Shown here piece by piece: positions 1,333-17,907 of a DNA stretch of 64,000 nt. Below the pieces are notes generated by a model. That model had not been told where the DNA came from, made no database searches, and saw only the letters and a program-made list of their open reading frames with translations. The translations under genes and the position numbers were made by a program. The DNA comes from an uncultured Chloroflexia bacterium (GTDB lineage: Bacteria > Chloroflexota > Dehalococcoidia > DSTF01 > WHTK01), in assembly GCA_963731765.1 (NCBI GenBank), contig CAVSWS010000004.1, positions 26,670 through 90,669 of the forward strand. The letters are read 5' to 3'. Every line of letters begins with the position of its first letter. Positions within the stretch are counted from its first letter, which is position 1.

Positions 1333-1340
1333 CTAGCGGA

Positions 1341-2988
1341 CTAGCGCGCTTCGATGCGGACGCGGCCTTTGGTGCCGTCTACTGTGAGCGACATGCCGTC
1401 TTTGATCGTGGTGGTGCCGATGCGGGTGCCGACCACGGCCGGGAGGTTGAACTCCCGCGCGACGATGGCGCAGTGGCTGAGCACCCCACCTGAATCGGCG
1501 ACGACGGCGCCGACGGTGGCGAACAGGGGTACCCAGGTGGGCAGGGTCATCTCGCAGACCATGATGTCGCCATGCTGAAGCTTGCTCGCCTCGACGAGCG
1601 TGCGCACGACCTTGGCGGTGCCGGTGTAGGCGCCGGGCGAGGCGGCGACGCCGTTGATCACATCGGCGTCCTTGCTGGCTTCGACGGGCAGCAGGCCGAG
1701 CATCTTGTCCACGAGCGAGACGAAGAAGGGGTCGGCAAGGGCAGGCGTGGGCTCTCCGAGGTGGTCCGGCGGGACGACCCTGGCCCATTGCTCGAGGTCG
1801 GCTCGGCGCGCTGCCACGGCGTGCTTCATCTCGGTGCCGTTGGCGAGAGCGTTACGCAGCTCGTCTTTGTAGAGGAAGAAGACGTCCTCCGGCGACGCGA
1901 TCTGGCCGCGCTCGACGAGGCGGCCAGCGAGCTGGAGGGCGAATCGGCGGAAGGTGGCGATGCCCATCTGGTCGATCCAGTAGCTGTGGTCCTCGGTGAC
2001 CTGGAGGTTGTAGCGGGAGGCGGCCAGCAGCTCGTCCAGGCGCGCCAGCTTGTCGGGTTGACCGGCGAGGCGGGCCTTGGCGGTAGCAACGAGGTCCTCG
2101 CGGCGGCGGACGGCGCGGTGGAAAACGGCTTCGGGGTCGTTTTCATCGGAGAGCGTGAGGTAGCCCTGGATCGTGTTGAGGGGAATCGCCAGGTTCTCGC
2201 GCCAGGTGGCCTCGGCGATCTCGTAGATGCCGTCGCTGCGCCAGCCGAACTTGTCGAGGAACTCGCGCAGCTCGGTGAGGAAGGCAGCGCCCTCGTTCGA
2301 GAAGCCAAGGGCAACTTCGATAGCTTTGGGGTCGCCGCTCTGGAAGATCTGCGAGAGGGCTTCGCTGGCTCTTGACGATGCGGCTCAGTCGCCAGAGGCC
2401 GGCCGCGGCTTCGAGCGACTTGGTGCGGTAGCCCTGCATGAGCTCGTACGCCTCGGTGCTGTCTTCCGGCTTGAGCTCTGCGTTGTAGAACTCCGTGAGG
2501 GCGTTGGAGGGGACGAGCACGAGGTTGATCCAGCCGTGGATGGTCCAGAAGAAGACGAGGTTCTGGAGCTGCTCGTCCAGGGCGGTTAGCAGGGCATCGT
2601 CGCTCAGCGAGGTGTAGTCGGTAGTGCGCGCCTTCTCCAGCATGGGGATGAGGGAGGGCTCCCATTCGTTCACCCAGCGCTCGCCGATGTGCATGGCGTC
2701 GGTCGAGAGCATCTTCTCGTAGCGGTCCTGCAGGGCTTCGGGCGTCTCCGTTATGCCGGTGTAGTCGGGCCGGAAGGAGGAGTAGAAGTAGTTGTTGATC
2801 ATGCGGCACTTGAGAGAGAGCGGCGTGCCGAAGGCGTGCTGGGCGATCGTGAAGCCTTCGCCCATGGCCATGACAACGGCGTCTCCGGCCAGCGGTGTCA
2901 GCGGCCGAGGGGCGTGGATCTTGTCCCAGTCCCAGTAGCCGTCGATTTCATCCTGCGAAGGGAAGCCCTCCTGGGTTTGCGTGGCCAT
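1341..2988 (-). pseudogene. PEP-utilizing His-swivel phosphotransferase subunit lacking an ATP-grasp domain; one frameshift near 2370 (real or assembly indel)
   Basis: ATG 2988 with SD GGAGGAG; N-part YWDWDKIHAPRPLTPL; after a one-base shift at ~2370 the frame continues to GVAASPG...GGVLSHCAIVAREFNLPAVVG; span is 1648 nt (3n+1). Confidence 0.8.
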
Positions 2989-3193
2989 GATGCTCCTCCA
3001 GCCAGCAGCGTGCGGTCCGAAAATTTCGGGGACTCGTGTGACGTGGGCGAACGTTATCAGGTGGCGATCAGGCCCGCAAGCTGGTGGCGACACGACACCA
3101 GTTGGTGTGTGGTGGTCGGGTGGGTGTACCGCGGGCTGAAACTCGCGGCGTGTGGGAATCCGGCGCTCTGCGTCTGGTTGCGAATGGAAGCAG

Positions 3194-3220
3194 AAAGGCG
3201 AGGAACAGCTCCTCGCCTTT
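3194..3220 (-). terminator. Intrinsic terminator downstream of the 3242-3697 gene
   Basis: 11-bp inverted repeat AAAGGCGAGGA/TCCTCGCCTTT with a 5-nt loop. Confidence 0.75.
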
Positions 3221-3241
3221 TCTGCGCTGATTGCGTTTGTG

Positions 3242-3697
3242 CTACTGGTTTGGCGGGACCGGGATCATGGGGCACTCGAAGCTGTCGCTGACCGGCAGCA
3301 GGGTGGCATCCCCGGCATTGACGGCGGCTTCGATCTCCGCGGCGCTATCGAAGTCGCCGCTGTTGTTGGTGTCGTAGGCGGCGAGGGCGGCGTCGTAGTC
3401 GTTGAAGCTGACGGGGACGACCATCCAGCGACCGCCGTTGAAGTTGGGCGCACCCGGGGCTGCATCGGCCACGTTGTGGTCCTGGTAGTCCGAAAGGGCG
3501 TAGATCGTGTCGAAGCTGTGATCCGGAGCACCGGTCTTGGCGAAGTGATGGGTAGGCGTGGCAACGGTGCGATACAGGGCACCGTTGTAGTAGATAGCCG
3601 GTCCGGTAATGCCGCCCGATCCGTTGGATGCAGCGGCAATAGAGGTGATGGCGAACACCGCCACAAGGGCGGCGGCCGCACTAACAAGCCATTTCAT
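3242..3697 (-). CDS. Secreted hypothetical protein
   Basis: SD GAGGAG; signal peptide MKWLVSAAAALVAVFAITSIAAA; 151 aa; EF-hand-like loop DTNNSGDFDSAAE. Confidence 0.75.
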   Translation of the reverse strand: MKWLVSAAAALVAVFAITSIAAASNGSGGITGPAIYYNGALYRTVATPTHHFAKTGAPDHSFDTIYALSDYQDHNVADAAPGAPNFNGGRWMVVPVSFNDYDAALAAYDTNNSGDFDSAAEIEAAVNAGDATLLPVSDSFECPMIPVPPNQ

Positions 3698-4009
3698 TCT
3701 GTTTCGTTCTCCTCATGAGATTTGCCGGCCAGCAAGAGTGAGGCTACGGCTCAGTTCTGTCATGGGAGTGACGAATCTTACTTTTCCCTGACGAGTTCGG
3801 GCCTGAAGTTTGGGAGGCAGGACAGGCGACTTGCAGGGAATCAAGAGCCGGGCCGCTATAGAAAACACTCATTTAACAGTTGCTTATTGGGCACTAAGTA
3901 CCCACTGCTGATACTGACTATGTGGAGCGGGCTGCTCCTATGAGCTGTGCGGTGGGGGTGTGGTATCGTGAGTGGTATAGGTAGCAGCCCGCTTTCTCAT
4001 AATCAAATT

Positions 4010-4708
4010 ATGGCCAATACAATCCTGGTGGTTGACGATGAAAAGAATATCGTTCAGCTTGCCCGTCTCTATCTCAGCAATGAGGGCTACCAGGTAGAAG
4101 AGGCCTACGACGGCAAGCAGGCGCTGGACAAAGCCCGCACCCTGAACCCCGACCTGATCGTGCTCGACATCATGATGCCGGAACTCGATGGCATCAGCGT
4201 GTGCAAAGAGCTGCGCAAGACGTCCAACATTCCCGTAATCATCTTGACGGCGCGCGATGACGACGTGGACAAGATCGTCGGCCTGGAAGTGGGCGCGGAC
4301 GATTACGTTACGAAGCCTTTCAACCCCCGCGAGCTGGTAGCGCGTGTCAAAGCGGTGCTGCGACGTACTCAGAACTCGGTTGCACCCGACGCCGTCCTTG
4401 AAGTGGGCGACATCAAGCTGGACCCGGCTCGGCGCGAGGTGTGGGTTGCCGGCAAATCGGTGAGCCTGCGCGCGAAAGAGTTCGACCTCCTGACCGCATT
4501 CATGCGCCACGAAGGCGTTGTTCTGGACCGCGAGAGGCTTCTGAGCCTGGTCTGGGGCCAGGACTTCTACGGCGACACGCGCACGATTGACGTACACGTT
4601 GCCTGGCTGCGTGAAAAGCTGCATGGTGCGAAGGCGCGGGTCCAGACCGTATGGGGGGTGGGCTACAAACTTGTCCTGGATGAGCAGGCTACTGCCGCGA
4701 AGCCTTAG
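4010..4708 (+). CDS. OmpR/PhoB-family response regulator
   Basis: ILVVDDE, LIVLDIMMP, ILTARDD, GADDYVTKPF, RTIDVHV, QTVWGVGYK; start placed 6 nt after CATAAT (3998-4003). Confidence 0.95.
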   Translation: MANTILVVDDEKNIVQLARLYLSNEGYQVEEAYDGKQALDKARTLNPDLIVLDIMMPELDGISVCKELRKTSNIPVIILTARDDDVDKIVGLEVGADDYVTKPFNPRELVARVKAVLRRTQNSVAPDAVLEVGDIKLDPARREVWVAGKSVSLRAKEFDLLTAFMRHEGVVLDRERLLSLVWGQDFYGDTRTIDVHVAWLREKLHGAKARVQTVWGVGYKLVLDEQATAAKP

Positions 4709-6191
4709 ATTCCGCCTTATATTCTCGTTTGGCCTCCTGATTTTCGTCACGTTGTTCCTGGCGGGAAGCGCGACGGTCTACCTGCTCCGGCAGCAGCAGG
4801 AGGAGGCGGCGACGGAACGTGTCGGCCTGCTCGCGGACCCGATGTCTCGTCGCGCCGGCGAGCTGGAGTACATCGGCGGCACGCCCAAGCAGATCATCGA
4901 TATCCTCAAGTCGGAGTACTCGTACGAGGGCGTGCGCATACTCCTCGTCGATAGCAATGACGTGGTGGTCGGCGACAGCGCGAACGATGCCCTGAAGGGC
5001 CAAACCCTGTCGCAGATCTCCAGCGCGGATGGGAACTCCGAGGTTAACGAGGACCTGCAGTACCAGGTCTCGACTCTGAACCGTGGGCCGGACGACCTGC
5101 TCCTGTTTACAACCACCCGATACGGCCGGCCCGGCTACGTGATCCCGTTCACGCCGACGCTGCAGACGATTGTCGCGGTGGACCAGAGCGACATCCAGGG
5201 TGCGTGGCGGGACCTTATGCCGCGTCTCTTCCTCGCCGGCGGTATCGCGCTGTTCTTCGGGGTGATCGCGGCCGGCCTGCTGGCGCGGTCGATTACGCGG
5301 CCACTGGCACGGATCACCGCCGCGTCCGAAGAGATGGCGCAGGGCAACTACGAGCAGCAGATCCCGGCCTACGGCGGCGATGAGGTGTCGCGGCTGGCGA
5401 GCGGGTTCAACGCGATGTCGCGCCAGGTCAGCCGGTCGCACCGCACCCTGCGCGACTTCCTGGCCAACGTATCGCACGAGCTCAAGACGCCCCTTACGTC
5501 CGTGCAGGGGTTCTCGCAGGCGATGGTCGACGGGTCGCTGACACGACCGGAGGACTACGCGGAAGCCGGCCGCATCATCAACGACGAGGCGGTGCGTATG
5601 CGCGGACTGGTCGATGACCTGCTGTACCTTTCGCAGGTGGAGCAAGGCGAGTTCAGCGTGCAGCTGGACGACATGTCGCCGACGGAGCTGCTGCGGGCGA
5701 CCCAGGAGCGCTTCGAGCGCCGAGCGGAGCACGCCGGCGTGAACCTGACGATCGAGGCCGGGGATACGCCGATCATCCGGGCAGACGGGCGGCGACTGGA
5801 GCAGGCGCTGGCGAACATCGTCGATAACGCCGTGCGCCATACACCCTCCGGCGGCAGCGTGACGCTGACCTCCGTGGCAGACGATGGGCATATCCAGCTA
5901 TCGGTGCACAATACAGGTTCCGTAATCCCTCCCGAGGCGCTGCCGCACGTGTTCGATCGCTTCTTCCAGGCAGACCCGGTGGGTGCGCGCGCCGACGCGA
6001 ACACGGGCCTGGGCCTGGCGATCACGCGGGAAATCGTGCAGGCTCACGGCGGCAGCGTGGAGGTAAAAAGCTCCCCGGAGGACGGGACAAGGTTTACAAT
6101 AACGCTGCCGGCAACGCAGTCGACGTCAGCCAATGGCAATACTCCTAGGAGTAACTTAGTCTGGTCAGCTCCCGGGTCCTCCCGCCCCTGA
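4680..6191 (+). CDS. HAMP-domain sensor histidine kinase
   Basis: Two TM helices, HAMP, H-box FLANVSHELKTPLTS, N-box NIVDNA, DRFFQ, G-box TGLGLAI; overlaps the regulator end. Confidence 0.95.
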   Translation: MSRLLPRSLRFRLIFSFGLLIFVTLFLAGSATVYLLRQQQEEAATERVGLLADPMSRRAGELEYIGGTPKQIIDILKSEYSYEGVRILLVDSNDVVVGDSANDALKGQTLSQISSADGNSEVNEDLQYQVSTLNRGPDDLLLFTTTRYGRPGYVIPFTPTLQTIVAVDQSDIQGAWRDLMPRLFLAGGIALFFGVIAAGLLARSITRPLARITAASEEMAQGNYEQQIPAYGGDEVSRLASGFNAMSRQVSRSHRTLRDFLANVSHELKTPLTSVQGFSQAMVDGSLTRPEDYAEAGRIINDEAVRMRGLVDDLLYLSQVEQGEFSVQLDDMSPTELLRATQERFERRAEHAGVNLTIEAGDTPIIRADGRRLEQALANIVDNAVRHTPSGGSVTLTSVADDGHIQLSVHNTGSVIPPEALPHVFDRFFQADPVGARADANTGLGLAITREIVQAHGGSVEVKSSPEDGTRFTITLPATQSTSANGNTPRSNLVWSAPGSSRP

Positions 6192-6208
6192 TAGCCCTTG
6201 CTCTGCTC

Positions 6209-6739
6209 ATGCTCGTCGTCAGCCTGGCGCTGGTTCTCGTGCTGGCGTCGGGGGGCGACGACAACAAATCGGCCATCGCAGCGGCCACACCGACGCGGGT
6301 GACGATTGTCGCCACGCCCACGCGCATCCCGGCACCGACGGCCACGGTGCAACCGACCGCGGTGCCCACCCTGACAGCCGATGTGCTGGCGCGCGTCCAG
6401 GCGCTGCCGGAGAAGCTGCGCGGCGACACGCTGGCGGCGTACGCGAGCGGCGAGCTGAGCGTGGAGCAGCTGCAGGAGATCCTGCTGGACTACGAGAACC
6501 GCAACCCGGCCGTGCGCGTCGGGACGGTGCTCGGCGTGTCGGAGGCCAACCTGCGCTTCGAGGTGTTCACTACGGGCGACCAGGTGGAAGTCGCCACGAA
6601 CAACAAGACGCAGATCCGGCGCGGCGCCAGCAAGATCGGTCTGAGCGCGCTGACGCCGGGCGAACTGGTGATGGTCGTGTCGTCGGACGATGGCTCGACG
6701 GCGCTGACCATCGATGCGCTTGGGGTGCAGGCGCCGTAG
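6209..6739 (+). CDS. Membrane-anchored protein with Thr/Pro linker and C-terminal DUF5666-like (OB-like) domain
   Basis: Hydrophobic N-terminus, PTATVQPT linker, GTVLGVS...TQIRRG...LSALTPGELVMV; start uncertain. Confidence 0.6.
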   Translation: MLVVSLALVLVLASGGDDNKSAIAAATPTRVTIVATPTRIPAPTATVQPTAVPTLTADVLARVQALPEKLRGDTLAAYASGELSVEQLQEILLDYENRNPAVRVGTVLGVSEANLRFEVFTTGDQVEVATNNKTQIRRGASKIGLSALTPGELVMVVSSDDGSTALTIDALGVQAP

Positions 6740-6767
6740 GACCTGGCGAGGCCAGTACAGGGCAGTT

Positions 6768-6894
6768 CCCTCGCCCCGCTGGGGAGACGGCCAGGGTGAG
6801 ACCCTCTCGGAACGCGCAGGAAAGCGCTTTGTAGCGTGGGGAACCTCACCCCGCCGACCGCAGCCGGCACCCCTCTCCGACCTCGGAGAGGGGA
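6768..6894. repeat. CCCTCACCC/CCCTCTCC-type intergenic palindromic repeats (two units)
   Basis: 6768-6800 is a reverse-orientation homolog of 12235-12266; hairpin CCCCTCTCCGA-CC-TCGGAGAGGGG at 6870-6893. Confidence 0.65.
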
Positions 6895-6970
6895 AGCCTG
6901 GTACGGATTGTCGCCATCGACTCGTGCGTCGCTTGAGCCTTCAGCGACCAGCGGAAGGCTCACTGCCGCC

Positions 6971-8350
6971 CTAGCTTGTTGGGATCTCGGCCGCCGCTGC
7001 TTGCGCCTTTGCCTCCGCGAGGGGGTAGGCCTCCATCTCGACGGTCGTGGGGTCGTCCTGGGTGCCGAGCGTGCGCCAGTCTTCGCCGGGGGCGAGGATC
7101 TTCTCCGCGGAGTAGACGCGCGCCAGCTCCGGCGATGGCTGGATGGCAGGCGGCTCGATGCCCTTCTGGTCGAGGTCGCGGGCAGCCTGTAGCAGCATGC
7201 GTCGCATGTGGATGATCGCCTTGTCCGTGTTGCCGAGGTGCTCCTGCGAGCGGTTGTAGACGGCGCCCATGCTCTCTGTGGCCATGAGGTCCTGGCTGAC
7301 GAAGTTCTCGATGCCGGTGAAGAGGTCCTTGCCCTGGACACCACGGTCGATCTGGTAGTCGTTCTCGGGCAGCCACTTGCGCTCGATGAGCCCGTTCATG
7401 GCACCGGCGCCGGTGGGGCCGCCGTAAGGGAACTTGTAGGGCGTGCCGCCGGGTGTGTTCGCTTCGTAGCTGAAGGGGCGGTTGAGCATGCCGGAGCTCA
7501 CCGTGAAGCGCCAGCAGGTCTCGTCGTCGCGGGGCACGAAGGTGGTGCCGCCGGCGCGGATCGGCATGCCGGCCACGATGGTCTGGTAAGGCATGATCCA
7601 GTGCGTGACGCGGACGTGGGTGTGGCCGTTCGGCGTGGTGCGGATGCCGGCGTACTTGAAGCCGTAGAAGGTGTCTTCGACCTCGAGCCGCGGGGCGCGG
7701 TCCTGGGTCCAGAGGTACCACGACTTCGCCTGCGAGGGGTAGCCGGGCTTGTCCGTGCCGTCGTCCGGCGTGTCGAAAAGGTCGAAGTAGGCGTGGAGCC
7801 AGGAGATGTGCGAGGTATCGATGTTGCCTTCGAGGGCCTGGATCCAGTTGCAGTATGTGATCTGCTTGGCGGCACGACCGGCACCGTCCTGCATCACTTC
7901 GGTGCCGAGGTCTCGGAAGGGCGGCGTGGTCTCGGCCGGGCCCATGTAGGCCCAGACGATGCCGCCGGACTCGTGCGTGGGGTAGGCGCGGATGCGCACC
8001 TTGTTCTTGAAGTTGCTCTCGGCGGGTTCTGACGGCATGTCGACGCAGGCGCCGGTCGTGTCGAACTTCCAGCCGTGGTAGACGCAGCGCAGGCCGGCTT
8101 CCTCGTTGCGGCCGAAGAACATCGACGCGCCGCGGTGGGGGCATGCCTGGACGAAGAGACCGACCTTGCCCTCGCTGTCGCGGAAGGCGACGAGGTCCTC
8201 GCCCAGCAGGCGGACGCGGAGGGGCGGACCGTCCGCCTCCGGTAGCTCGGCGGCGAGCAGCGCGGGCGTCCAGTAGCGACGCAGCAGCTTGCCCATGATG
8301 GTCTCGGGGCCGACGCTGGTGAGGGTCTTGTTGTCTTCCGGCGATAGCAT
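6971..8350 (-). CDS. Rieske non-heme iron oxygenase alpha subunit (phthalate 4,5-dioxygenase/LigX-like), paralog 1
   Basis: Rieske motif CPHRG...CVYHGW; mononuclear Fe motif EGNIDTSHISWLH; distal QDLMATESMG. Confidence 0.93.
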   Translation of the reverse strand: MLSPEDNKTLTSVGPETIMGKLLRRYWTPALLAAELPEADGPPLRVRLLGEDLVAFRDSEGKVGLFVQACPHRGASMFFGRNEEAGLRCVYHGWKFDTTGACVDMPSEPAESNFKNKVRIRAYPTHESGGIVWAYMGPAETTPPFRDLGTEVMQDGAGRAAKQITYCNWIQALEGNIDTSHISWLHAYFDLFDTPDDGTDKPGYPSQAKSWYLWTQDRAPRLEVEDTFYGFKYAGIRTTPNGHTHVRVTHWIMPYQTIVAGMPIRAGGTTFVPRDDETCWRFTVSSGMLNRPFSYEANTPGGTPYKFPYGGPTGAGAMNGLIERKWLPENDYQIDRGVQGKDLFTGIENFVSQDLMATESMGAVYNRSQEHLGNTDKAIIHMRRMLLQAARDLDQKGIEPPAIQPSPELARVYSAEKILAPGEDWRTLGTQDDPTTVEMEAYPLAEAKAQAAAAEIPTS

Positions 8351-8515
8351 GGCATGCTCCTCAGCTTCGTTCGAAGTGTGTAAGTAGAGTCTACGAGCAT
8401 CGAAGGATTCTGTCGTGTAGGACGCGGCCGGTGCCCGCAGATAACAGAGATCTGATAGCAGTGGGCCTTGCAGAGCCTGTCCCGTGCTCTCTGTTACCTG
8501 CTACTCGTCTACTCG

Positions 8516-9298
8516 TCAGGGCATGAGGAACCACGGCGGCGCGCGGAGCCTCGATGGGACATGGGGCAGAACGAGGCGCGAGGCCCTGCACGTCGCCTCG
8601 AGGGCGCGCTGGCGGTTGGGGCCCCAGGCGAGGCCGAACTGGGACCGCAAGGGCTCCGGCAGCAGGCCGGCGGTGAGGACGCGTACCGAGTCCATGACGG
8701 GCCAGGTAAGGACGTTCGAGGCGAAGAGCGCCTCGGTGATCTCGCGGGCTTCATCCGAGACGACAAGGGTGCGGCACATGCGGTCGACGTAGGCTTCGAG
8801 GGCGTCGAGGTTCGCCGGCATGACGTCCTCCGGAATGCCCAGCAGCGAGCCGACGTGGCACATGTCGGCGTAGTAAGCGTCGCGTTCGGCAGGGTCGAGG
8901 GGGCGGACGAAGCGCTCGTGCATGAACACGGACGTGTCGATGAGGGTGGCGAGGACCCAGAGCAGCAGGTCGGGGTCCGTGGCGGCGTAGGTCGCGCCCG
9001 TGACGCGCTCGTGGATGCGGTTGATGCCGGCAGCGGCTTCGAGGGCCTGCTGCCTGGTGCCGAAGACGATGGCGAGGGTGGGCCGCAGGGTGCGGAGGAG
9101 GCGGTCGATGCGGTCGGCACGGAACCGGCTGTGCTCGGCGACGCCCTTCGCGACGGAGGGGTGGGCGATCTGCATGAGCAGCGCTCGGCCGCCGCCGAGG
9201 AGCAGTACGCCCTCACGGTGCACTCGGCGGGCCATGCAGTCGTCCGGGAAGGGGAGGAAGGCCGGTTCGAGGGACAAAACGGGGTTTGGGGTAGTCAC
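8516..9298 (-). CDS. Oxygenase MpaB/DUF2236 family protein
   Basis: LLLGGGRALLMQIAHPSVAKGVAEHSRF...DRLLRTL...IHERVTG..YAATDPDLLLWVLATL; start uncertain (GTG 9298 chosen). Confidence 0.85.
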   Translation of the reverse strand: MTTPNPVLSLEPAFLPFPDDCMARRVHREGVLLLGGGRALLMQIAHPSVAKGVAEHSRFRADRIDRLLRTLRPTLAIVFGTRQQALEAAAGINRIHERVTGATYAATDPDLLLWVLATLIDTSVFMHERFVRPLDPAERDAYYADMCHVGSLLGIPEDVMPANLDALEAYVDRMCRTLVVSDEAREITEALFASNVLTWPVMDSVRVLTAGLLPEPLRSQFGLAWGPNRQRALEATCRASRLVLPHVPSRLRAPPWFLMP

Positions 9299-9329
9299 GA
9301 TGGCTAAGTCTCTACGTATACTGTGCGGC

Positions 9330-9983
9330 ATGAGCGAAGAGGACATCCAGGAGACACCGGAACGCACGTCGATCATCATCGTCTCAGACTTCGTTTGACC
9401 GTGGTGCTACATCGGCCTAGTTGAGGTCGAACGACTACAGCAAGAGTACGACTTCGATGTACAGTTTGCGCCCTTCCTCTTGCGCCCGGAGACGCCGCGG
9501 GAAGGCATGCCCGCCCGTCGCATCGTGACGCCGGACGCGCCGCCGACGCCCCAGGAGCTGCGCGGTGAGCAGCTCGGTATCACCTTCTCCCGCGGCCGGG
9601 TGTGGTCTTCCTATTCACACCTGGCGCTGGAAGCCGCCGAGCACTCCCTGCGCACGACGGACTTCGATACGGCCTGGAATTTCCACAAGCGCATCTTCAA
9701 GAGCTACTTCACGGACCTGGAGAACATCGGCGACATCAGCGTGCTGGTGCGCCTGGCGGAGGAGATGGGCCTGGACGGCGCAGAGCTGCGGCGGGCGCTG
9801 GACGACCGGCGCTACGAGCAGGAAGTAGACGAGGGCATTAGCTGGTCCCGGGCCATCGGCGTGACGGCGATCCCGACCTTCGTGTTCAACGAGCGCATGG
9901 GGATGGTGGGTGCGCAGGAGCTACCGGCGTTTCGGGAGATGATGAGCCGGGTGGGGAATCCGCCTCGCTCGGCGAGCGAGTAG
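9330..9983 (+). CDS. DsbA/FrnE-family thiol-disulfide oxidoreductase, selenoprotein (Sec at TGA 9396-9398)
   Basis: ATG 9330 reads ...IIIVSDFV-TGA-PWCYIG and the same frame stays open to 9983 (GVTAIPTFVFN cis-Pro loop); UxxC occupies the CxxC position; SECIS-like hairpin follows. Confidence 0.85.
9412..9430 (+). promoter_or_regulatory. Bacterial SECIS-like hairpin
   Basis: TCGGCCT-AGTTG-AGGTCGA (7 bp including one G-U); loop starts 21 nt after the UGA start+2 and has G as its second base. Confidence 0.65.
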
Positions 9984-10046
9984 CCGTCAGCGATCAGCAT
10001 CAGCGCTGAGATTCGGTACCACGGCTTATCGGCGGCGTACCGCTGC

Positions 10047-10154
10047 GTCATTGCGAGAAGGCGAAAGCCGCCGTGGCAATCTCACATGTGCATGGGAGTG
10101 CCGAAAGCATTTCGTGGGATTGCCACGGCCCATTGGCAAGGGCCTCGCAATGAC
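10047..10154. repeat. GTCATTGCGAG-family palindromic repeat, copy 1
   Basis: Terminal IR GTCATTGCGAG/CTCGCAATGAC with inner GCAATC/GATTGC. Confidence 0.85.
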
Positions 10155-10227
10155 CACTCGTCCGGGCGGCATTTTCCCTGTACTGCAGAGGGCTCGTCCG
10201 CCCAGCCAGGGTGCTACTGCCAGGGTG

Positions 10228-10605
10228 CTACTGATTGATCAGGAACGTCGCGGCCTGCTCGAAGTAGTCGCGCATGTGGGTGCGGGCGGGCTCCGCAATG
10301 CCGGTTTCGTCAACGGCGGCGAGCATGTGCTTGACCCAGGCGTCGCGCTCCTTGCGGTCGATGACGAAGGGGAGGTGGCGGGCGCGCAGGCGAGGATGGC
10401 CGCGCTGCATGGAGTAATCCTGTGGGCCGCCGAAGAACTGCGACAGGAAGAGCGCCAGGTGCTTGCGTGATTCGTCCAGCGACTCGGGGTACAGGGGACG
10501 GAGCACGGGGTCCTGCTCTACGGCGTCGTAGAAGTGGTCGACCAGCTTTTCGAAGGTGGGGTAGCCGCCGACGATGTCGTGGATGTTGAGTTCGTTCTCT
10601 GCCAT
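10228..10605 (-). CDS. glbO: Group II truncated hemoglobin (trHbO)
   Basis: VGG..TFEKLVDHFY, FLSQFFGGPQDY, RGHPRLRARHLPF, RDAWVKHM. Confidence 0.93.
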   Translation of the reverse strand: MAENELNIHDIVGGYPTFEKLVDHFYDAVEQDPVLRPLYPESLDESRKHLALFLSQFFGGPQDYSMQRGHPRLRARHLPFVIDRKERDAWVKHMLAAVDETGIAEPARTHMRDYFEQAATFLINQ

Positions 10606-10767
10606 GTCTGTCCCAATAGTAGTACGCGGGGTCTCGCTGACTCGATAGCCTCATCGGGCAATCGGGCACCCCTCGACCACGGCCGGTGGGTCGGAACGCT
10701 CGGAACCGCTCGGATGCGTGACTTGGTGTGATAATGACGCCAGCTTTCGACTGAAGGGACGGGCGCC

Positions 10768-12069
10768 ATGCTGAGCAAAGAAGACAACGAGATCCTGACG
10801 CGCACGAACGCCGGGACACCGATGGGTGAGTTGTTCCGCCGCTTCTGGCTACCGGCGATGCTGCCATCGGAGCTGCCGGAGGTGGACTGCGCGCCGGTGC
10901 GTCTGCGTTTGCTCGGCGAGGACCTGGTGGCGTTCCGGGACAGCAACGGGTCGGTCGGCTTCTTCACGCAGGCGTGCCCGCATCGTGGCGCTTCCATGTT
11001 CTTCGGGCGCAACGAGGAGGAGGGGCTGCGCTGCGTCTACCACGGCTGGAAGTTCGATATCACCGGCGCGTGTGTCGACATGCCTTCGGAGCCGGCCGAG
11101 AGCAATTTCAAGAACAAGGTGCGCATCAAGGCCTACCCTTCGGCCGAGTTCGGCGGGCTGGTGTGGATCTACATGGGTCCGCCGGAGAAGGAGCCGGCCC
11201 TGCCGCACTACCAGTGGACGCTGCAGCCGAACGCGGAGGCGAGCCGCGTGACGAAGCACATGCAGGACTCCAACTACACGCAGGGCCTCGAAGGCAACAT
11301 CGACTCCGCCCACGTGACGTTTCTGCATCGGGTGTTCGGGGCGGAGACGTTCCTGCGCGGCATCCCGTACGCGGCGCCCGAGATCACGGAGTCGCGCGAG
11401 ACGGAGTTCGGTTTCGTGTACGGTGCTCGGCGGCAGACGCCGGCGCCTGATGAGTACTACTGGCGCGTGACGTCTTATGTGTTCCCGACGTTCACGTCGA
11501 TCGCGGGCACGTCGAAGGCGGGCGGGGGCATCTTCGTGCTGCCGATGGACGACGAGCACAGCTGGTGGTTCATGGTGCAGCCGCCATCGCCGGAGCCGGA
11601 GCGGACGCAGGCAGCGGTGCGGTCGCAGTCCGGGCCGTTCGCGTACGTCTCTCAGTTCGACCAGTCGACGCTGGGCCTGATCCCCGGGACGTTCCGCTAC
11701 TTCCGCAACAAGGACAATGACTACCTGATCGACCGCGAGAAGCAGAAGACGCTGAACTACACGGGGCTGCCGGGGAACCGTACCCAGGACGCAGCAGTGA
11801 CGGAATCGATGGGGGCGATCTACGACCGCTCGCAGGAGCACCTGGGGACGACGGACGTCGCGGTGATCCACATGCGCCGGGTGCTTATCGAAATGGCGCG
11901 CGACCTGCAGAACGGCATCGAGCCGTCGATTCTCAAGGCGCCGCAGAGCTTCCGGGCGATCCCGCAGGACGTCGTAACGGAGAAGCAGCATCTCGCGGAG
12001 GTGTGGGACCCGTACTGGGCCGAGTTCAAGGCCGAGGCGGGGATCGAGGCGCCGGCGATTACGGGCTAG
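10768..12069 (+). CDS. Rieske non-heme iron oxygenase alpha subunit, paralog 2
   Basis: CPHRG...CVYHGW; EGNIDSAHVTFLH; QDAAVTESMG; N-terminal third highly similar to 6971-8350. Confidence 0.93.
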   Translation: MLSKEDNEILTRTNAGTPMGELFRRFWLPAMLPSELPEVDCAPVRLRLLGEDLVAFRDSNGSVGFFTQACPHRGASMFFGRNEEEGLRCVYHGWKFDITGACVDMPSEPAESNFKNKVRIKAYPSAEFGGLVWIYMGPPEKEPALPHYQWTLQPNAEASRVTKHMQDSNYTQGLEGNIDSAHVTFLHRVFGAETFLRGIPYAAPEITESRETEFGFVYGARRQTPAPDEYYWRVTSYVFPTFTSIAGTSKAGGGIFVLPMDDEHSWWFMVQPPSPEPERTQAAVRSQSGPFAYVSQFDQSTLGLIPGTFRYFRNKDNDYLIDREKQKTLNYTGLPGNRTQDAAVTESMGAIYDRSQEHLGTTDVAVIHMRRVLIEMARDLQNGIEPSILKAPQSFRAIPQDVVTEKQHLAEVWDPYWAEFKAEAGIEAPAITG

Positions 12070-12098
12070 CTCGTAGCGGCTAAATCAGTTCGTTAAGG

Positions 12099-12191
12099 CA
12101 TCCTGAGCTTGTCGAAGGATGTCGGCGTCGCGGCGAATAACTGACTCCTTGCGCTAATGCAGCCCTGACGTGCTTCGGCAAGCTCAGCATG
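12099..12191. repeat. CTGAG..TCGAAG-family palindromic repeat doublet
   Basis: CTGAGCTTGTCGAAG (12103-12117) and inverted CTTCGGCAAGCTCAG (12173-12187). Confidence 0.8.
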
Positions 12192-12234
12192 CCGTGGTCG
12201 GCATACCGTCGACCACTTCGCAGCGCTGCTGCCC

Positions 12235-12266
12235 CTCACCCGACCCTCTCCCCAGCGGGCCGAGGG
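12235..12266. repeat. CCCTCACCC/CCCTCTCC-type repeat
   Basis: CTCACCCGACCCTCTCCCCAGCGGGCCGAGGG resembles the reverse complement of 6768-6800. Confidence 0.65.
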
Positions 12267-12324
12267 GGAATGATCTGTGCTGCTGGGGATATTCTGCAGC
12301 GCTTGGCCGCAAGACCTTGCATTC

Positions 12325-13470
12325 TTAGCCCCACACCTTCCTTGCCACTTCGCTGACGAGGCGGAGCTTGGCGAGCTGCTGCTCCTCCGTGAGCGGGTTG
12401 CCGCCCTCGGCGGAGGCGAAGCCGCACTGGGGGCTGAGGGCCAGCCGCTCCAGCGGGATGATCTCGGCGGCGGCGTGGATGCCGGCTTCGACCTCGGCGG
12501 CGGATTCGAGGGTGCCTTCCTTGGTCGTGAGCAGGCCGAGGACGACCGTGGTATCCGGCAGGATGTGGCGCAGGGGGGCGAAGTCGCCGGCGCGGGGCGT
12601 GTCGTACTCCAGTAGCAGGGTGTCGATGTTGGGGATGTGCTGGAACAGGGGCGCCAGGGGCTCGTAGCCGCCGTTGGCGCTCCAGTAGCCGCCGGGCGAG
12701 TTGCCGCGACAGACGTGCATGGCGCAGGTGACGTTGTCCAGTCCCTCGAAGAGGTAGTTGTCGACCTCGGCGTCCTCAATGAGGTTCGCGGCCATGTCCT
12801 GGGCGTCCTCGGTCTCGTAGGCGGCGCGCACCTTTGGGTCGACGTAGAACTGGCCGTAGTTCGGGGCGTCGAGCTGGATGTAGTCGCAGCCCATCTCGAG
12901 CAGGGGCTTCACGACGTACTCGCGCAGCTTGTCGGCGATGTCGTAGAGGAAGTCGCGCGAGGTGGGGTAGGCGCCCGTGGAGTAGTTGCGGTCCCAGTAG
13001 ATGCGGTGGTAGCTGGGCGACGGGAAGCAGAACTTGGTGCGGACGGACGCGTGCTGCCTGAGGAAGTCGTAGTCCGAGGTGATCTCGTTGGAGAAGGCGA
13101 TCTTGTCGACGACGACGCCGCGGGGACGGGCACCGCGTTCGATAAAGTTGCCCTGGTTGTCCCACCAGAACCGGATCCAGCCCGGCCCTGCGTCCGTGAG
13201 GATCTTGAAGCCGCTGAACGCCGAGCGATGCAGGCCTTCCACGGTCGTAGGCGCGGTGGCGATCCAGGAGACGCGTCGTAGCTCGCCGTCCGTGATCACG
13301 TCGAGGCCTGCCGCCTCCTGCAGGGTGATGGCCTCCATGACGGCGCGGTTCTCCACCTCGCGGCGCTGGGTCTGGCTGACGAAGCCGGAGCGCACACCGG
13401 CGCGCATGTCCTTCACGTAGCCGGGACGCAGCAGGCTGCCGACAACTTCAGCGCGCGGTATCGATGCCAT
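12325..13470 (-). CDS. Cobalamin-independent methionine synthase II family protein (single-barrel MetE-like)
   Basis: RAEVVGSLLRP, ITDGELRR, YIQLDAP, MHVCRGN, LLEYD, LALSPQCGFAS (Zn ligands H, C, E, C). Confidence 0.92.
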   Translation of the reverse strand: MASIPRAEVVGSLLRPGYVKDMRAGVRSGFVSQTQRREVENRAVMEAITLQEAAGLDVITDGELRRVSWIATAPTTVEGLHRSAFSGFKILTDAGPGWIRFWWDNQGNFIERGARPRGVVVDKIAFSNEITSDYDFLRQHASVRTKFCFPSPSYHRIYWDRNYSTGAYPTSRDFLYDIADKLREYVVKPLLEMGCDYIQLDAPNYGQFYVDPKVRAAYETEDAQDMAANLIEDAEVDNYLFEGLDNVTCAMHVCRGNSPGGYWSANGGYEPLAPLFQHIPNIDTLLLEYDTPRAGDFAPLRHILPDTTVVLGLLTTKEGTLESAAEVEAGIHAAAEIIPLERLALSPQCGFASAEGGNPLTEEQQLAKLRLVSEVARKVWG

Positions 13471-13566
13471 GGCGGTGCTCCTTTTGAGGTTGGGTCGTGG
13501 TATCTGCGCATGCTACAGGAAGCGTCGCATGCGCGTCCGTCCGGGAACCTCCGATATGCTGCGGCT

Positions 13567-14091
13567 ATGAGTGACCAGAACGGCGCCGTGCTGATCGTCA
13601 TGGGCGGGCTGCCCGGCACCGGCAAGACGACGATCGCGCGAGCCCTGGCACGGCGCATCGGGGCCATGCACGTGCGCATCGATAGCATCGAGCAGGCGCT
13701 GCGAGACGCGGGTGGGACGTTGGCGGTGGGCGACGAGGGCTATCGGGTGGCGTATGCGGTGGCGGAGGACAACCTGCGCCTGGGGCATACCGTGGTCGCC
13801 GATTCCGTGAACCCGCTGGTGATTACGCGCGAGGCATGGCGATCGGTGGCGTTACGAAGCGAGGCGCGGTGTATCGAGGTGGAGGTCGTGTGCTCGGATG
13901 CGGCGGAGCACCGCCGGCGTGTCGAGTCGCGTCAGGGCGATATCGAGGGCTTGAAGCTGCCGTCCTGGCAGGACGTGATCGAGCGGGAGTACGAGGTGTG
14001 GGAGCAGCCGCATCTCGTGATTGATACGGCGGTGATGGGCGTGGAGGAGGCTGCCGGCGTTATCGAGGCGGCGCTGGAGGGCGGGGCGTAG
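13567..14091 (+). CDS. AAA_33-type P-loop kinase-like protein
   Basis: Walker A GLPGTGKTT; VVADSVNP; start 6 nt after TATGCT. Confidence 0.85.
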   Translation: MSDQNGAVLIVMGGLPGTGKTTIARALARRIGAMHVRIDSIEQALRDAGGTLAVGDEGYRVAYAVAEDNLRLGHTVVADSVNPLVITREAWRSVALRSEARCIEVEVVCSDAAEHRRRVESRQGDIEGLKLPSWQDVIEREYEVWEQPHLVIDTAVMGVEEAAGVIEAALEGGA

Positions 14092-14129
14092 GCGTCGGTG
14101 CGCTTCGAGGTGTGGTGAGGCGCCGGCCT

Positions 14130-14948
14130 CTACGGTGTGGTCTTGGCGGCAGAAGCGGGTCCCCGGCTGGCGACCAGGTAGATCGCGGAGTCGGTGCCGA
14201 CCTTGCTGCCGGCGGGCGGCGTCTGCTCCATGATGATGCCCTTCGCCACCGTGTCGCTGTAGACCTGGATGATGAAGTAGTTGACGTCGTTGTCATTGAG
14301 GAACGTCATGGCGCTCGCGAGGTCAGCGCCCACGAAGTCGGAGTACTGGCCCGGACGCGCCGGTGTGATGCTCTTGCCCTGAACCGGGCTATCGCCTCCG
14401 CTGGTGGGCGGCGCCTGCACCTGGCCGCCGGCCGTGGTCGAGACGCTCTGCGAGAGGGCGGCTTGCTGGGCGGTGAGGTCCTCTGGGCTGACAGCGGGAT
14501 TGCCGCTGCCGGTGCGCATGAGGAGGACGCCCGCTCCCAGGAGGAAGATGGCGACGAGGCCCGCGACGAGCCAGTTGACGTTGATCAGTTGCTCGGGCGG
14601 CCGGGATACCGTGGGCAGAGGTGTGATATCGACTGTGAGGTCGGCGCTCGGGAAGACGCGCAGGAGCTCGTCCGGGTTGAGGCCGAGGTAGCGTGCGTAG
14701 GTACGGAGGAAGCCTCGGGCGTACACAGGCGCCGGGAAGATCGAGAAGTCTTCGTTCTCGAGCGCCTGGAGGTAACGGCGAGAGACGTGCGTATCGCGCT
14801 CAACGTCTTCGAGCGTGATCGCCCGAGCGCGTCGTGCACGTGAAAGCGTATTGCCGAGCTCGCCCATCCGTGGAGTGGGGGCGGAAGCCGGGTACGGCCG
14901 CTCGACAGCAAGCTGCAACGTAGAGTTGTCTTCTGCGGTGGTCATCAA
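14130..14948 (-). CDS. RodZ-like HTH + TM + C-terminal PASTA-like domain protein
   Basis: LGNTLSRARRARAITLEDVERDTHVSRRYLQALENEDF...YARGFLRTYARYLGL; one TM; FVGADL...YSDTVAKGIIMEQTPPAGSKV...IYLVASRGP. Confidence 0.8.
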   Translation of the reverse strand: MMTTAEDNSTLQLAVERPYPASAPTPRMGELGNTLSRARRARAITLEDVERDTHVSRRYLQALENEDFSIFPAPVYARGFLRTYARYLGLNPDELLRVFPSADLTVDITPLPTVSRPPEQLINVNWLVAGLVAIFLLGAGVLLMRTGSGNPAVSPEDLTAQQAALSQSVSTTAGGQVQAPPTSGGDSPVQGKSITPARPGQYSDFVGADLASAMTFLNDNDVNYFIIQVYSDTVAKGIIMEQTPPAGSKVGTDSAIYLVASRGPASAAKTTP

Positions 14949-15142
14949 TATTTAATTACAGGGGATCGAAAGAAGAACCCCCGCCTAGCCGGAACCAGCC
15001 TACCACATGTCTATGCAAATCTCGGAATTCTTATGTCTTTTCGGGAGGGAGGCCAGACGTGACCCCATGCTAGAATGGCGCCGCTCTGCCTAATTTTCGT
15101 TATCAAATGGCCGCGGAGAGCGGCTGGATTCGGGGCGTCTGC

Positions 15143-15901
15143 ATGGATCTGGGACTCAAGGGCAAGGTCGCTATCGTCACCGGCGGCAGTCGCGGCATCG
15201 GCCGGTCGATTGCGCTGGGGTTGGCGGCAGAGGGCGCCAACGTGGCGATCTGCGCTCGTGGCGAGGAGAAGCTGCGCGAGACGGAGGCCGAGATCAAGGC
15301 GGCAGGCGTGAAGACGTTCGCGATGCCGCTGGACGTCACGGACGGCGCCGCCATCGACGACTTCGTGGCGAAGACGGCCGCGGAGCTGGGCGGCATCGAT
15401 ATCCTCGTGAACAACGCTGGGGGCTCACGCCCGGGCGATGAGGACGAGGTCTGGCAGGGCGTGTTGGACGTCAACCTGATGGCGGCGGTGCGAGCGAGCC
15501 GGGCCGTGATACCCCACCTTCGAGAGCGTGGCGGCGGTTCCATCGTGCACATCACCTCGATCTACGGCCGGGAGAGCGGCGGCGCGGCGACCTACAACGC
15601 CGCGAAATCGGCCATGACAGCGCACGCCAAGAGCCTGGGGCTGCAGCTGGCGCGCGAAGGCATCCGGGTCAACTCGATTGCGCCGGGCTCGATCCGGTTC
15701 CCCGGTGGCGGCTGGGACCGACGCGTGCAGGCCGACCCGGCAGCGATGGAGCGGTTTGTGAACGACAACATCGCGGCGGGGCGGTTCGGCACGCCGGAGG
15801 AGGTCGCGAACGCCGTCGTCTTCCTGTGCTCCCCGGCCGCGAGCTGGGTGGTGGCCGCGTCCCTGAACGTCGACGGCGGCCAGAGCCGGTCGAACATCTA
15901 A
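15143..15901 (+). CDS. Classical SDR oxidoreductase
   Basis: TGGSRGIG, ILVNNAG, YNAAK, GIRVNSIAPG. Confidence 0.95.
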   Translation: MDLGLKGKVAIVTGGSRGIGRSIALGLAAEGANVAICARGEEKLRETEAEIKAAGVKTFAMPLDVTDGAAIDDFVAKTAAELGGIDILVNNAGGSRPGDEDEVWQGVLDVNLMAAVRASRAVIPHLRERGGGSIVHITSIYGRESGGAATYNAAKSAMTAHAKSLGLQLAREGIRVNSIAPGSIRFPGGGWDRRVQADPAAMERFVNDNIAAGRFGTPEEVANAVVFLCSPAASWVVAASLNVDGGQSRSNI

Positions 15902-15938
15902 TGCAGCTACTTTCTCGAACCTCCTACGTACAGAAATT

Positions 15939-16081
15939 GTCATTGCGAGCCAGCGCGGCAGCGAGGCGCGGCAACCTGGGGAGCACTGCATCGACTGGGC
16001 AGCTGGCCTCCGTGAGAGCCCCATCCGTACAAGAATGGCTGAACGACTGCCACGGCCCGCTAACGCGTGCCTCGCAACGAC
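15939..16081. repeat. GTCATTGCGAG-family repeat, copy 2
   Basis: GTCATTGCGAG ... CTCGCAACGAC. Confidence 0.85.
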
Positions 16082-16114
16082 AGCAGGAGGGAGCGTCCCG
16101 CCGGGGATGAAGCT

Positions 16115-17065
16115 ATGAGTAAGGTTCCCGAATACGCCGTCCGTCTTTTCCTGCACTGGCTCAACGAGCGCTACGCTCGCGGCTTCGTGCCGTCGGCGGG
16201 CGACGACGAGCTGTGGCAGGCCAGCGACCCGGAAGCCGGCAGCATCACGATGGCGACGGCGTACCTTTACGAGGGCGATGAGGCCTGGCGCGAACGCTGC
16301 GCCGACCTGGAAGAGCGCCTGAACGGCTCTCGGCCGGGCTCTTACGTGCTGTGGCAGCCCAAGGGCGGCAACTTGCCCGACGAGGAGCCGGACGAATCGG
16401 AGTGGGTGCGTCGCGTGGTGCTGACGGCTTCGAAGCTGGCGTCGGGACGCAGCGGCGAGGCGCGGTTACCCGTGAAGCTCGGCATCGGCAAGGTGCGCGA
16501 CGAGGGCGGCTATGCCAGCGTAACGGGCGGCCTCGGCCGGCACTGGCCCGACATCTCGCAGCGCCTGGAAGGCAGCTACTACCTCGATAGCCGGGGGCTG
16601 AACCGCCTGACGACGAACGAAGAAGAACGCGTCGAGCTGTTCGACCACATCGGCATGCTGAGCCAGGCCATGACGACGGGCGATTTCGTGGAGTTCGAGC
16701 ACGAGGACGCGTGGTCCTTGCAGCGGCTGGCGCGCGGCCCCGCCAGCGAAGGCATGACGGACGGCTGGGCGATCGCGGGCTGCCCGCCCGGGTTCGACCC
16801 CAGCGATGGCGGCGCGATGCGGCGGCTGCTGCGCCGGAGCCTGACGACGGCGTCCGAGAAGCTGAGCGGCGTTTCGGGCAGTACGCGGGCGCTGGTGCTC
16901 GTGGGCGCCTACGACTACATGGAGAACGAGAACGCCGGTCCCGCCCTCCGGGGCTTCGACCCCATGCTGGCGGCGAGCTTCGACGTGATCGCGCTGGTGT
17001 CGGACGCGGAGGTGAAGTCGCTGCGGCTGGCGCGCGGGCTGCCGTTCGCGCGGGAGACCGCGTAG
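16115..17065 (+). CDS. Hypothetical protein (316 aa)
   Basis: Long ORF with typical GC3-rich codon use; no family recognised. Confidence 0.75.
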   Translation: MSKVPEYAVRLFLHWLNERYARGFVPSAGDDELWQASDPEAGSITMATAYLYEGDEAWRERCADLEERLNGSRPGSYVLWQPKGGNLPDEEPDESEWVRRVVLTASKLASGRSGEARLPVKLGIGKVRDEGGYASVTGGLGRHWPDISQRLEGSYYLDSRGLNRLTTNEEERVELFDHIGMLSQAMTTGDFVEFEHEDAWSLQRLARGPASEGMTDGWAIAGCPPGFDPSDGGAMRRLLRRSLTTASEKLSGVSGSTRALVLVGAYDYMENENAGPALRGFDPMLAASFDVIALVSDAEVKSLRLARGLPFARETA

Positions 17066-17114
17066 GACGCAGCTTTTCTGACTCCGTCCATCTGTGCCCG
17101 TTGACTCGCGTTCG

Positions 17115-17133
17115 CCCTGAGCCTGTCGAAGGG
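17115..17133. repeat. CTGAG..TCGAAG-family repeat (solo)
   Basis: CCCTGAGCCTGTCGAAGGG. Confidence 0.7.
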
Positions 17134-17286
17134 TGAGGGGCGATGAGGTTTCATGCGCCAGTCGATCACCTGAGACCAGCGCTCCCTCGCTCGCGCAGGA
17201 TGCCGCCACGGGCTGGTCGGTAGCCATCGCCAGGTTTGAGGCGCAGAATGGGCGGACAGCAGGGTGCGGCTCGGGCGAAAGGGGCG

Positions 17287-17736
17287 ATGATGGCGACAGT
17301 ACAGGTGATTCTCAACGGTATGCCCGGCGGCACGGTGCACGACACGGAGCAGTATCCGGTGGTGCTGCGGTTCGAAGACGATAAGAGCGTCGAGAACGCC
17401 GTCTGGGTGATCCCGAGCTTTCCCGGCGAGATCCCGGCCGCCATGCTGTCCGAGATCCGGGTGCAGGTGGGGCCGCTGCAGGCGATGGTTGATGGGCCGG
17501 AGGGCTTTCAGTCCGGGCCGCACGACACGACGTGGATCCGCTGCGATTACCCGCGCGGCAAGCTCGTCTCGTTTCTCCAGACCGGCGGCGACACGCACAA
17601 GATGACCGGCGTCAGCGTCTCGATTGTCGAGGACTCCCTGGTGGTCGACGAAGTCACCATCGGCGGCGGCTCGAGCTCGTCGTCGGGCGGTTCCGGGTCA
17701 TCAGGCGCCGCCGGAGGCCAGAACCCCGCTTCATAG
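17287..17736 (+). CDS. Hypothetical protein with Gly/Ser-rich tail
   Basis: Purine-rich SD-like AAGGGG; coding-like codon bias; no family recognised. Confidence 0.7.
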   Translation: MMATVQVILNGMPGGTVHDTEQYPVVLRFEDDKSVENAVWVIPSFPGEIPAAMLSEIRVQVGPLQAMVDGPEGFQSGPHDTTWIRCDYPRGKLVSFLQTGGDTHKMTGVSVSIVEDSLVVDEVTIGGGSSSSSGGSGSSGAAGGQNPAS

Positions 17737-17785
17737 TCCGTCGTCCTTCCCCTAAAGGGCAGGACGGTCCAGGGCGTCCGTTGCT

Positions 17786-17907
17786 GTCGTTGCGAGAAGG
17801 CGATAGCCGACGAAGCAATCTTTCCGGGTTCTTAATACTCAAACGTCTGAGCCGATACCGAGGGCTGAAAGATTGCCGCGGCCCGCTGTCGCGTGCCTCG
17901 CAACGAC
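17786..17907. repeat. GTCATTGCGAG-family repeat, copy 3
   Basis: GTCGTTGCGAG ... CTCGCAACGAC (compensatory G-C pair). Confidence 0.85.

Follow-up and report, generated by a model that had tools for sequence, protein, structure and literature searches.

The DNA analyzed here is a 64,000-nucleotide stretch (referred to below as the window, 64.9% G+C) from an uncultured Chloroflexia bacterium, placed by GTDB within the class Dehalococcoidia (assembly GCA_963731765.1, contig CAVSWS010000004.1). It carries a gene, at positions 9330 to 9983 of the forward strand, whose reading frame is interrupted by a TGA codon shortly after its start. With a probability of about 0.9, we consider that this is a genuine selenocysteine (Sec) decoding gene, predicted from comparison with its relatives to encode a thiol-disulfide oxidoreductase of the DsbA/FrnE type in which Sec would act as the nucleophile of a U-P-W-C active site. 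The evidence comes from the conservation of the reading frame on both sides of the TGA, from the alternation of TGA and Cys codons among related genomes, and from an RNA hairpin directly downstream that is kept where the codon is TGA. The coordinates of all the features are collected in Table 1.

The reading frame and its relatives

Read from its ATG, the frame gives MSEEDIQETPERTSIIIVSDFV up to the TGA and then continues as PWCYIGLVEVERL (PWCYIGLVEVERLQQEYDF when followed at greater length) through 194 sense codons before reaching a TAG. In translation, the context of the TGA is MSEED...SDFV-(TGA)-PWCYIG. The mechanically produced list of open reading frames (ORFs) breaks the gene at this codon, one ORF (9000–9398) ending there and the next one in frame covering 9480–9983, and the catalogued database product of the gene (P0002) is a fragment of 158 aa. 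TGA is not reassigned in the source genome: of the window's 36 confident ORFs, 11 end with it as an ordinary stop. No convincing second selenoprotein emerged from a rough search for further in-frame TGAs flanked on either side by coding signal, a search whose weak filter missed the true one too. An assembly error at the TGA is unlikely, because an independent ENA assembly (L081, ERZ25039495, contig_47491), 98.8% identical to the window, carries the identical TGA and the identical hairpin.

A protein search returned 347 relatives, and motifs and truncations were counted in the best 120. Among these best 120 database matches, 51 are full-length homologs with the motif SDF[VI]-C-PWCY[IV]G, and 68 are truncated at the N-terminus, with scattered starts located just past the motif (MPARR in 36 cases, VEVER in seven, LQQEY, VHFAP, and others). 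Such scattered downstream starts are the usual trace left by gene callers that halt at an in-frame TGA. In the alignment of homologs (A3) the CPWC motif is invariant.

The same family was followed at the DNA level in a genome scan that took one genome per species and yielded 80 loci of 20 kb each, mostly from Dehalococcoidia and other Chloroflexota metagenome-assembled genomes (MAGs), with protein identities to the window ranging from 85% down to about 35%. The motif was readable in 63 of these loci, and the codon at the Sec position was TGA in 50 of them and TGC or TGT in 13. In both sets the codon is framed by conserved in-frame flanks, SDF[VI] on the N-terminal side and PWCY[IV]G on the C-terminal side. 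The 50 TGA loci come from different species-level genomes and have 44–85% protein identity. In a neighbor-joining tree the Sec and Cys forms appear interspersed, and the window protein clusters with five TGA forms (L001–L005), beside a clade of Cys forms (P0001, P0005, and P0013). One homolog, P0117 (L083, 264–1013), appears to have Trp at this position; its DNA has TGA, which had been translated with a code in which TGA is a sense codon (genetic code 4). The gene call of P0117 also runs through its true TGA stop, which has given it a spurious C-terminal extension.

A previous sequence-only reading of this DNA had proposed that the ORF track splits a single gene at TGA 9396, that the frame runs on past a DxxCPWC-type site, that Cys/Sec pairs are diagnostic of such a gene, and that standard pipelines would truncate the gene. 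The split and the continuing frame are indeed there, the TGA and TGC/TGT loci together with the aligned full-length Cys homologs bear out the Cys/Sec pair, and truncation is what both the fragment P0002 and the majority of the best homologs display. That reading had also left room for a TGC or TGT at 9396, a point answered in part by the TGA of the independent assembly.

The hairpin and the start of the gene

The hairpin found past the TGA has a stem of seven base pairs, one of them G·U, and is separated from the UGA by 13 nt. It forms the core of the minimum-free-energy fold, and its own energy is -9.3 kcal/mol. The published model of the bacterial selenocysteine insertion sequence (SECIS) has a loop of 3–9 nt, an upper stem of 4–16 bp, a G within the first two loop positions, a distance of 16–37 nt from the UGA to the loop, and a minimum free energy at or below -7.5 kcal/mol (PMC13188914). 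The window hairpin falls within this model on all four counts, with a 5-nt loop on a 7-bp stem, G and U at loop positions 2 and 3, a spacing of 20 nt (9399–9418) from the UGA to the loop, and an energy below the limit. In most relatives the loop is C-G-U-G-G, the N1 and N2 of the N1-G-U-N-N2 loop model being able to form a closing C-G pair, whereas in the loops of the window and of L001 an A replaces this C at N1 and gives an A·G mismatch in place of that pair.

Pairing in the stem columns reaches 99.4% over the 46 distinct sequences of the TGA form, and five pairs, the G·U included, are invariant. The synonymous sites tell more than covariation does. With columns numbered from the T of TGA, the stem includes the third-codon positions 18, 21, 24, 30, and 33, whose entropies are 0, 0.14, 0.48, 0, and 0 bit. 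Over columns 6 to 66 there are fifteen further degenerate third positions, and these show 0.46–1.72 bit, with 1.42 bit at column 27, the one that lies in the loop. When the twenty entropies are ranked, the stem positions occupy ranks 1–4 and 6, which only 2 of 15,504 subsets equal. At the protein level, the TGA forms have a near-fixed G-L-V-E-V-E in this region, and the Cys forms have GLSEVE, GLMEIE, GLKELE, GLEVID, or GYAEVQ, among others.

The TGA forms and the Cys forms also differ in the energy of the hairpin, which has a mean of -11.1 kcal/mol in the former (-11.5 to -8.2) and of -5.6 kcal/mol in the latter, where the hairpin is mostly lost. The Cys ortholog P0001 (L084) is syntenic with the window gene and 75% identical to it, and shares with it the upstream MpaB and Rieske genes as well as the TATACT box with its 7-nt spacer. 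It reads AUCGGGCUGCUUGAAGUCGAG where the window reads AUCGGCCUAGUUGAGGUCGAA, so that two synonymous changes (GGC>GGG and GAG>GAA) break two stem pairs, and a further change, GUU>CUU, removes the G of the loop. In L007, also a Cys form, the hairpin is still whole, which is what a recent change to Cys would be expected to leave. At the other extreme, the core AUCGGCC/GGUCGAU persists, with another loop, in the two remotest TGA forms, L062 (an Isosphaeraceae MAG) and L063. These comparisons indicate that the hairpin is under selection at the RNA level, and only where the codon is TGA. Since all TGA forms share one hairpin sequence, a single origin of the Sec form, followed by repeated replacement of Sec by Cys, seems to be the history behind this distribution.

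The start of the gene could be compared in 64 loci. In 48 of them a -10 box stands upstream of an in-frame ATG or GTG, at a distance of 6 nt (42 loci), 7 nt (four), or 8 nt (two), mostly as TATACT (31) or TACACT (10), the remainder having TATAAT (three) or similar hexamers. The start associated with the box in these 48 loci opens an uninterrupted frame up to the Sec/Cys codon, and random positions taken from the same loci pass the box test in only 12 of 2560 cases (0.5%). The N-terminus MSE is common to the closest relatives (L001, L004–L008, and L059). A minority of lineages, Sec and Cys forms alike, have a GGAGG-type ribosome-binding site instead. A scan of the window gene for a two-hexamer sigma-70 consensus (-35/-10) found no promoter, only the -10 box being conserved. 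The alternative start at ATG 9300 was rejected, as the -10 box would then fall inside the coding sequence and this ATG is not conserved. A leaderless start is thus well supported as a prediction. The sequence-only reading had described both a SECIS-like hairpin 13 nt past the TGA and a start fitting a leaderless promoter, and the comparison with relatives supports both as predictions.

The expression of this gene may be pictured as follows. The mRNA would probably begin at or beside the ATG. When the ribosome arrives at UGA codon 23, the hairpin located 13 nt downstream, with its G-U-containing apical loop 20 nt past the UGA, would be bound by SelB together with Sec-tRNA(Sec), Sec would be inserted in place of termination, and translation would go on through the DSBA domain. 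The most likely chemistry of the product would be a cycle between the selenol/thiol and the selenenylsulfide states of Sec23 and Cys26, by which it would reduce, oxidize, or isomerize cytoplasmic disulfides, as does the FrnE of Deinococcus.

A broader evolutionary picture can be proposed only tentatively, and we would put it at somewhat less than an even chance. According to it, the FrnE-like Sec form would be ancestral in this Chloroflexota clade, its near-invariant SECIS (UCGGCCUCGUNGAGGUCGA) having been kept while protein identity fell to 44–85%; the Cys forms would have arisen many times, with the hairpin decaying afterward; and recoding would take place at codon 23 of a leaderless mRNA, with SelB engaging the SECIS within ~100 nt of the 5' end.

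Alternative explanations and the Sec machinery

Several results count against a Sec-decoding gene and have to be set beside the evidence in its favor. No tRNA-Sec was detected by ARAGORN in the window, where it finds no tRNA at all, or in 60 related loci. Searches with phmmer for SelA, SelB, and SelD (E. coli queries, against ORFs of at least 80 aa in the window and 80 loci) gave no match at E <= 1e-3, and neither selA, selB, and selD nor tRNA-Sec were found in the ~10 kb beyond the end of the window that could be followed on the sister contig. The 60-nt fold that includes the hairpin is no more stable than shuffled sequences (z = -0.31). Rfam returned no match for the whole window at gathering thresholds or for positions 9250–10260 at E <= 1, which says little, as no bacterial SECIS match was found there. 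True covariation in the stem rests on a single sequence, L006, with one double (compensatory) change from C-G to U-A, and is thin because so conserved a stem hardly varies. On a single sequence, hairpin and promoter are no better than chance, and their significance comes only from the comparison with relatives.

These searches also touched two other genes. At 8109–8200 of locus L056 (minus strand) ARAGORN calls a 92-nt 'tRNA-Ile(GAT)' with its anticodon at position 33, unusually long for an Ile tRNA. ORFs with AIRS and AIRS_C domains beyond the end of the window were suspected of being SelD and rejected, their N-terminal motifs and their thiD/thiE/tsaE neighborhood looking like ThiL. This probable gene for thiamine-monophosphate kinase (thiL; L082, 11373–12399, ~0.7–1.8 kb past the window end) appears in the sister assembly as two overlapping ORFs, probably by a frameshift.

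The alternative that survives best, although we judge it very improbable, is that the UGA is recoded to something other than Sec. It could be read as Cys by a SelB/SECIS-dependent variant tRNA, an insertion reported to take place in some bacteria (Mukai et al., 2016, Angew Chem), or as Trp by near-cognate readthrough. The inserted amino acid is indistinguishable by sequence analysis, and genes for Sec synthesis were not seen in the stretch searched. However, an enzyme with Trp as its nucleophilic residue would be inactive, and P0117, the sole 'W' homolog, is the product of a TGA translated with genetic code 4. The repeated passage from TGA to ordinary Cys codons accompanied by the decay of the hairpin is, moreover, the standard pattern of Sec families, and the Dehalococcoidia are documented as rich in selenoproteins, two of their MAGs, with 49 and 46 selenoprotein genes, being among the top ten organisms in BSepDB (PMC13326102).

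The annotated short ORF might instead be the real gene, starting past the TGA (e.g., at Met60, 9507) and encoding a DSBA domain without CxxC, with the 22 upstream codons forming a separate peptide or remaining untranslated. This matches what gene callers have annotated, both for the window (P0002, 158 aa) and for 68 of the best 120 homologs, but the truncated starts (MPARR, VEVER, LQQEY, VHFAP, and others) are inconsistent among relatives, and the nine codons before the TGA, as well as the region from the TGA to these starts, are conserved as protein, catalytic motif included. The conserved -10 box, besides, directly precedes the upstream ATG and not the internal starts, and a DSBA domain deprived of strand 1 and of the active-site helix would not be expected to fold, all of which makes this alternative extremely improbable. 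Next to no weight can be given to a nonsense mutation or a sequencing or assembly error (leaving a pseudogene, or a true TGC or TGT codon), since, although 47 gap openings in 18.8 kb between the window and the sister assembly reveal an imperfect assembly quality, the errors between assemblies are indels and not A/C or A/T substitutions at one codon, the same TGA stands in the independent assembly and in 50 loci of distinct species-level genomes (44–85% identity), and the coding sequence is conserved in frame on either side of it.

The protein, its surroundings and known selenoproteins

With U written as C, the 217-residue product matches the Pfam family DSBA (PF01323) over residues 15–203 (E 8.6e-26, 91.3 bits against a cut-off of 25.6). 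Its best solved relative by sequence is the FrnE of Deinococcus radiodurans (PDB 5cnw, E 7.4e-16, residues 11–206), at an identity of only ~25%, followed by SCO1869 of Streptomyces. A structure model was made for the 75%-identical Cys homolog P0001 as a stand-in for the window protein, with a predicted local distance difference test score of 91.6 and a predicted template modeling (TM) score of 0.86. In this model, a strand (residues 20–25) is followed by a helix (30–43) that has the first CPWC Cys at its N-terminal end. The top five fold matches of this model in the PDB are all FrnE (TM 0.73–0.79), and after them come SCO1869, YjbH, kappa-class glutathione S-transferases, DsbM, and 2-hydroxychromene-2-carboxylate (HCCA) isomerases.

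Cys26 is the sole Cys of the window protein, and its only redox pair would be Sec23/Cys26. By analogy with the DsbA family, Pro182 would belong to the cis-Pro loop of thioredoxin-fold oxidoreductases. The protein is presumably cytoplasmic, because it has no signal peptide and its N-terminus is acidic. None of the NCBIfam models reaches its cut-off, the only match being NF041057 with 46 bits against 190, and the products stored in NCBI and JGI records are truncated because of this.

Table 1. Location of the gene and of its features within the window.
Feature	Position	Strand	Remarks
-10 box TATACT	9317..9322	+	7 nt before ATG 9330; nothing Shine-Dalgarno-like between
Complete coding sequence, predicted DsbA/FrnE-like selenoprotein	9330..9983	+	Translation of 217 residues including Sec23; TAG at 9981–9983
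In-frame TGA, predicted Sec codon (residue 23)	9396..9398	+	Occupies the place of the first CPWC Cys of 51 full-length homologs
Predicted redox motif U-P-W-C (Sec23, Cys26)	9396..9407	+	From the translation
Predicted SECIS hairpin	9412..9430	+	Stem UCGGCCU (9412–9418)/AGGUCGA (9424–9430), apical loop AGUUG (9419–9423)
Codon of Pro182 (IPTF), expected cis-Pro loop position	9873..9875	+	P182, T183, and F184 invariant in alignment A1

The gene has an MpaB-type oxygenase gene in divergent orientation upstream, a truncated globin gene in convergent orientation downstream, and Rieske oxygenases on both sides. The upstream MpaB and the downstream globin are common only to the closest relatives (L001–L006 and L084), and because of this restricted conservation the neighborhood gives no firm functional clue. 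The two paralogous Rieske/LigXa_C-type oxygenases (6971–8350, minus strand, and 10768–12069, plus strand) flank the trio of MpaB, DsbA-like, and globin genes in inverted orientation and share ~80% nucleotide identity over ~275 nt, pointing to an inverted duplication around the locus.

Where the DsbA-like and globin genes converge, the spacer contains a nested palindrome at 10047–10154 (arms 10047–10057/10144–10154 and 10070–10085/10114–10129), with a folding energy of -62 kcal/mol (z = -5.4 against shuffles) and no match in Rfam. Its relatives (GTCATTGCGAGAAGGCGA.AGCCG...GCAATC ... GATTGCC.CGGCCC...CCTCGCAATGAC) are found in at least three other intergenic spots (~15933–16083, 17786–17909, and 21160–21339). 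It looks like a dispersed repeat of the repetitive extragenic palindrome or miniature inverted-repeat transposable element kind, and perhaps serves as a bidirectional terminator.

Farther away in the window, rpoB (36034–39843) and rpoC (31567–36030), both on the minus strand and both confirmed by Pfam, lie in the same frame with a single TAA between them; the pair looks like one frame of 2,760 codons with a stop, and is ordinary. A comparison of positions 1–19000 of the window with L081 (ena:ERZ25039495:contig_47491), the sole contig recorded for the window proteins, shows that the two are not identical (98.8%). A gene of the PEP-utilizer/Rph type, for example, is intact in L081 (548 aa) and split in the window (~1341–1967 and 2143–3093, minus strand). 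The two differ either because the strains do or because long-read assembly introduced indel errors.

A DsbA-like protein (COG2761, the COG of FrnE) with a UxxC motif was reported as a new selenoprotein family as early as 2005 from Sargasso Sea data, with nine sequences and a predicted SECIS (PMC1088965, Zhang, Fomenko & Gladyshev). The following year it was found in Anaeromyxobacter, Desulfovibrio, and Desulfotomaculum (PMC1794560), by 2016 the family had 45 genes in 41 organisms (PMC5029168), and a review of 2026 has an entry for 'DsbA-like protein form 1, PF01323, UxxC' (PMC13188914). The novelty attributed to the gene by the sequence-only reading was therefore overrated, as the gene joins a family of selenoproteins that was recognized two decades ago, in a class already known for its heavy use of Sec, and knowledge of Sec decoding itself is left unchanged by it. 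What can be considered modestly new is a SECIS almost frozen across the whole of this Chloroflexota clade, the repeated replacement of Sec by Cys with decay of the hairpin, and the conserved promoter arrangement of the leaderless type. We did not find the near-invariant SECIS and the leaderless-type promoter described in papers on the DsbA-like family, whose database entries were not covered.

For annotation, the value of this gene is more immediate, since public databases contain it, along with dozens of relatives, as N-terminally truncated fragments that have lost the active site, and one relative as a false Trp form. Automatic pipelines will keep missing the family because no NCBIfam model reaches its cut-off. 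Biologically, it would provide soil Dehalococcoidia with one more selenoprotein among the thiol oxidoreductases. The clade, with its many Sec/Cys switches and its frozen SECIS, is also a natural experiment for the study of SelB-SECIS recognition and of the costs and benefits of Sec versus Cys.

Among proteins of solved structure, the closest counterpart is the FrnE of D. radiodurans (PDB 5cnw, 5co3, 5coh, 5cp1, and 5xwh), a cytoplasmic disulfide oxidoreductase/isomerase. The window protein is like it in fold (as judged from the P0001 model), in the xPWC active-site motif, and in the absence of a signal peptide. It differs at the first active-site position, where FrnE has Cys and the window protein is predicted to have Sec, and at the C-terminus. 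FrnE is 260 aa long and has there Cys239 (changed in the C239S mutant, 5cp1), whereas the window protein, with 217 aa, ends in ...GNPPRSASE. A second Cys motif in the C-terminal tail of FrnE communicates with its active site. No such motif exists in the window protein, and because this Cys-bearing tail is lacking it is FrnE-like in fold and motif and not an ortholog of FrnE.

The RNA element can be compared with the SECIS of E. coli fdhF and the bacterial consensus (bSECISearch; Zhang & Gladyshev, 2005, as summarized in PMC13188914). In both cases the hairpin lies inside the coding sequence, directly 3' of the UGA, and the window element shares the small apical loop with G followed by U, a spacing (20 nt) and an energy (below -7.5 kcal/mol) in agreement with the consensus, whereas it has no sequence similarity with the fdhF element and no evident bulged U. 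Finally, in comparison with the DsbA-like form 1 family, the window gene is alike in the Pfam domain (PF01323), in the position of the predicted Sec within UxxC, paired with widespread Cys homologs, and in the bacterial-type SECIS right after the UGA with a G in its small apical loop, so that every sequence-level mark of membership is present. Nothing essential differs between them, and the window gene would be a member from a soil or terrestrial-type lineage of Dehalococcoidia/Chloroflexota.

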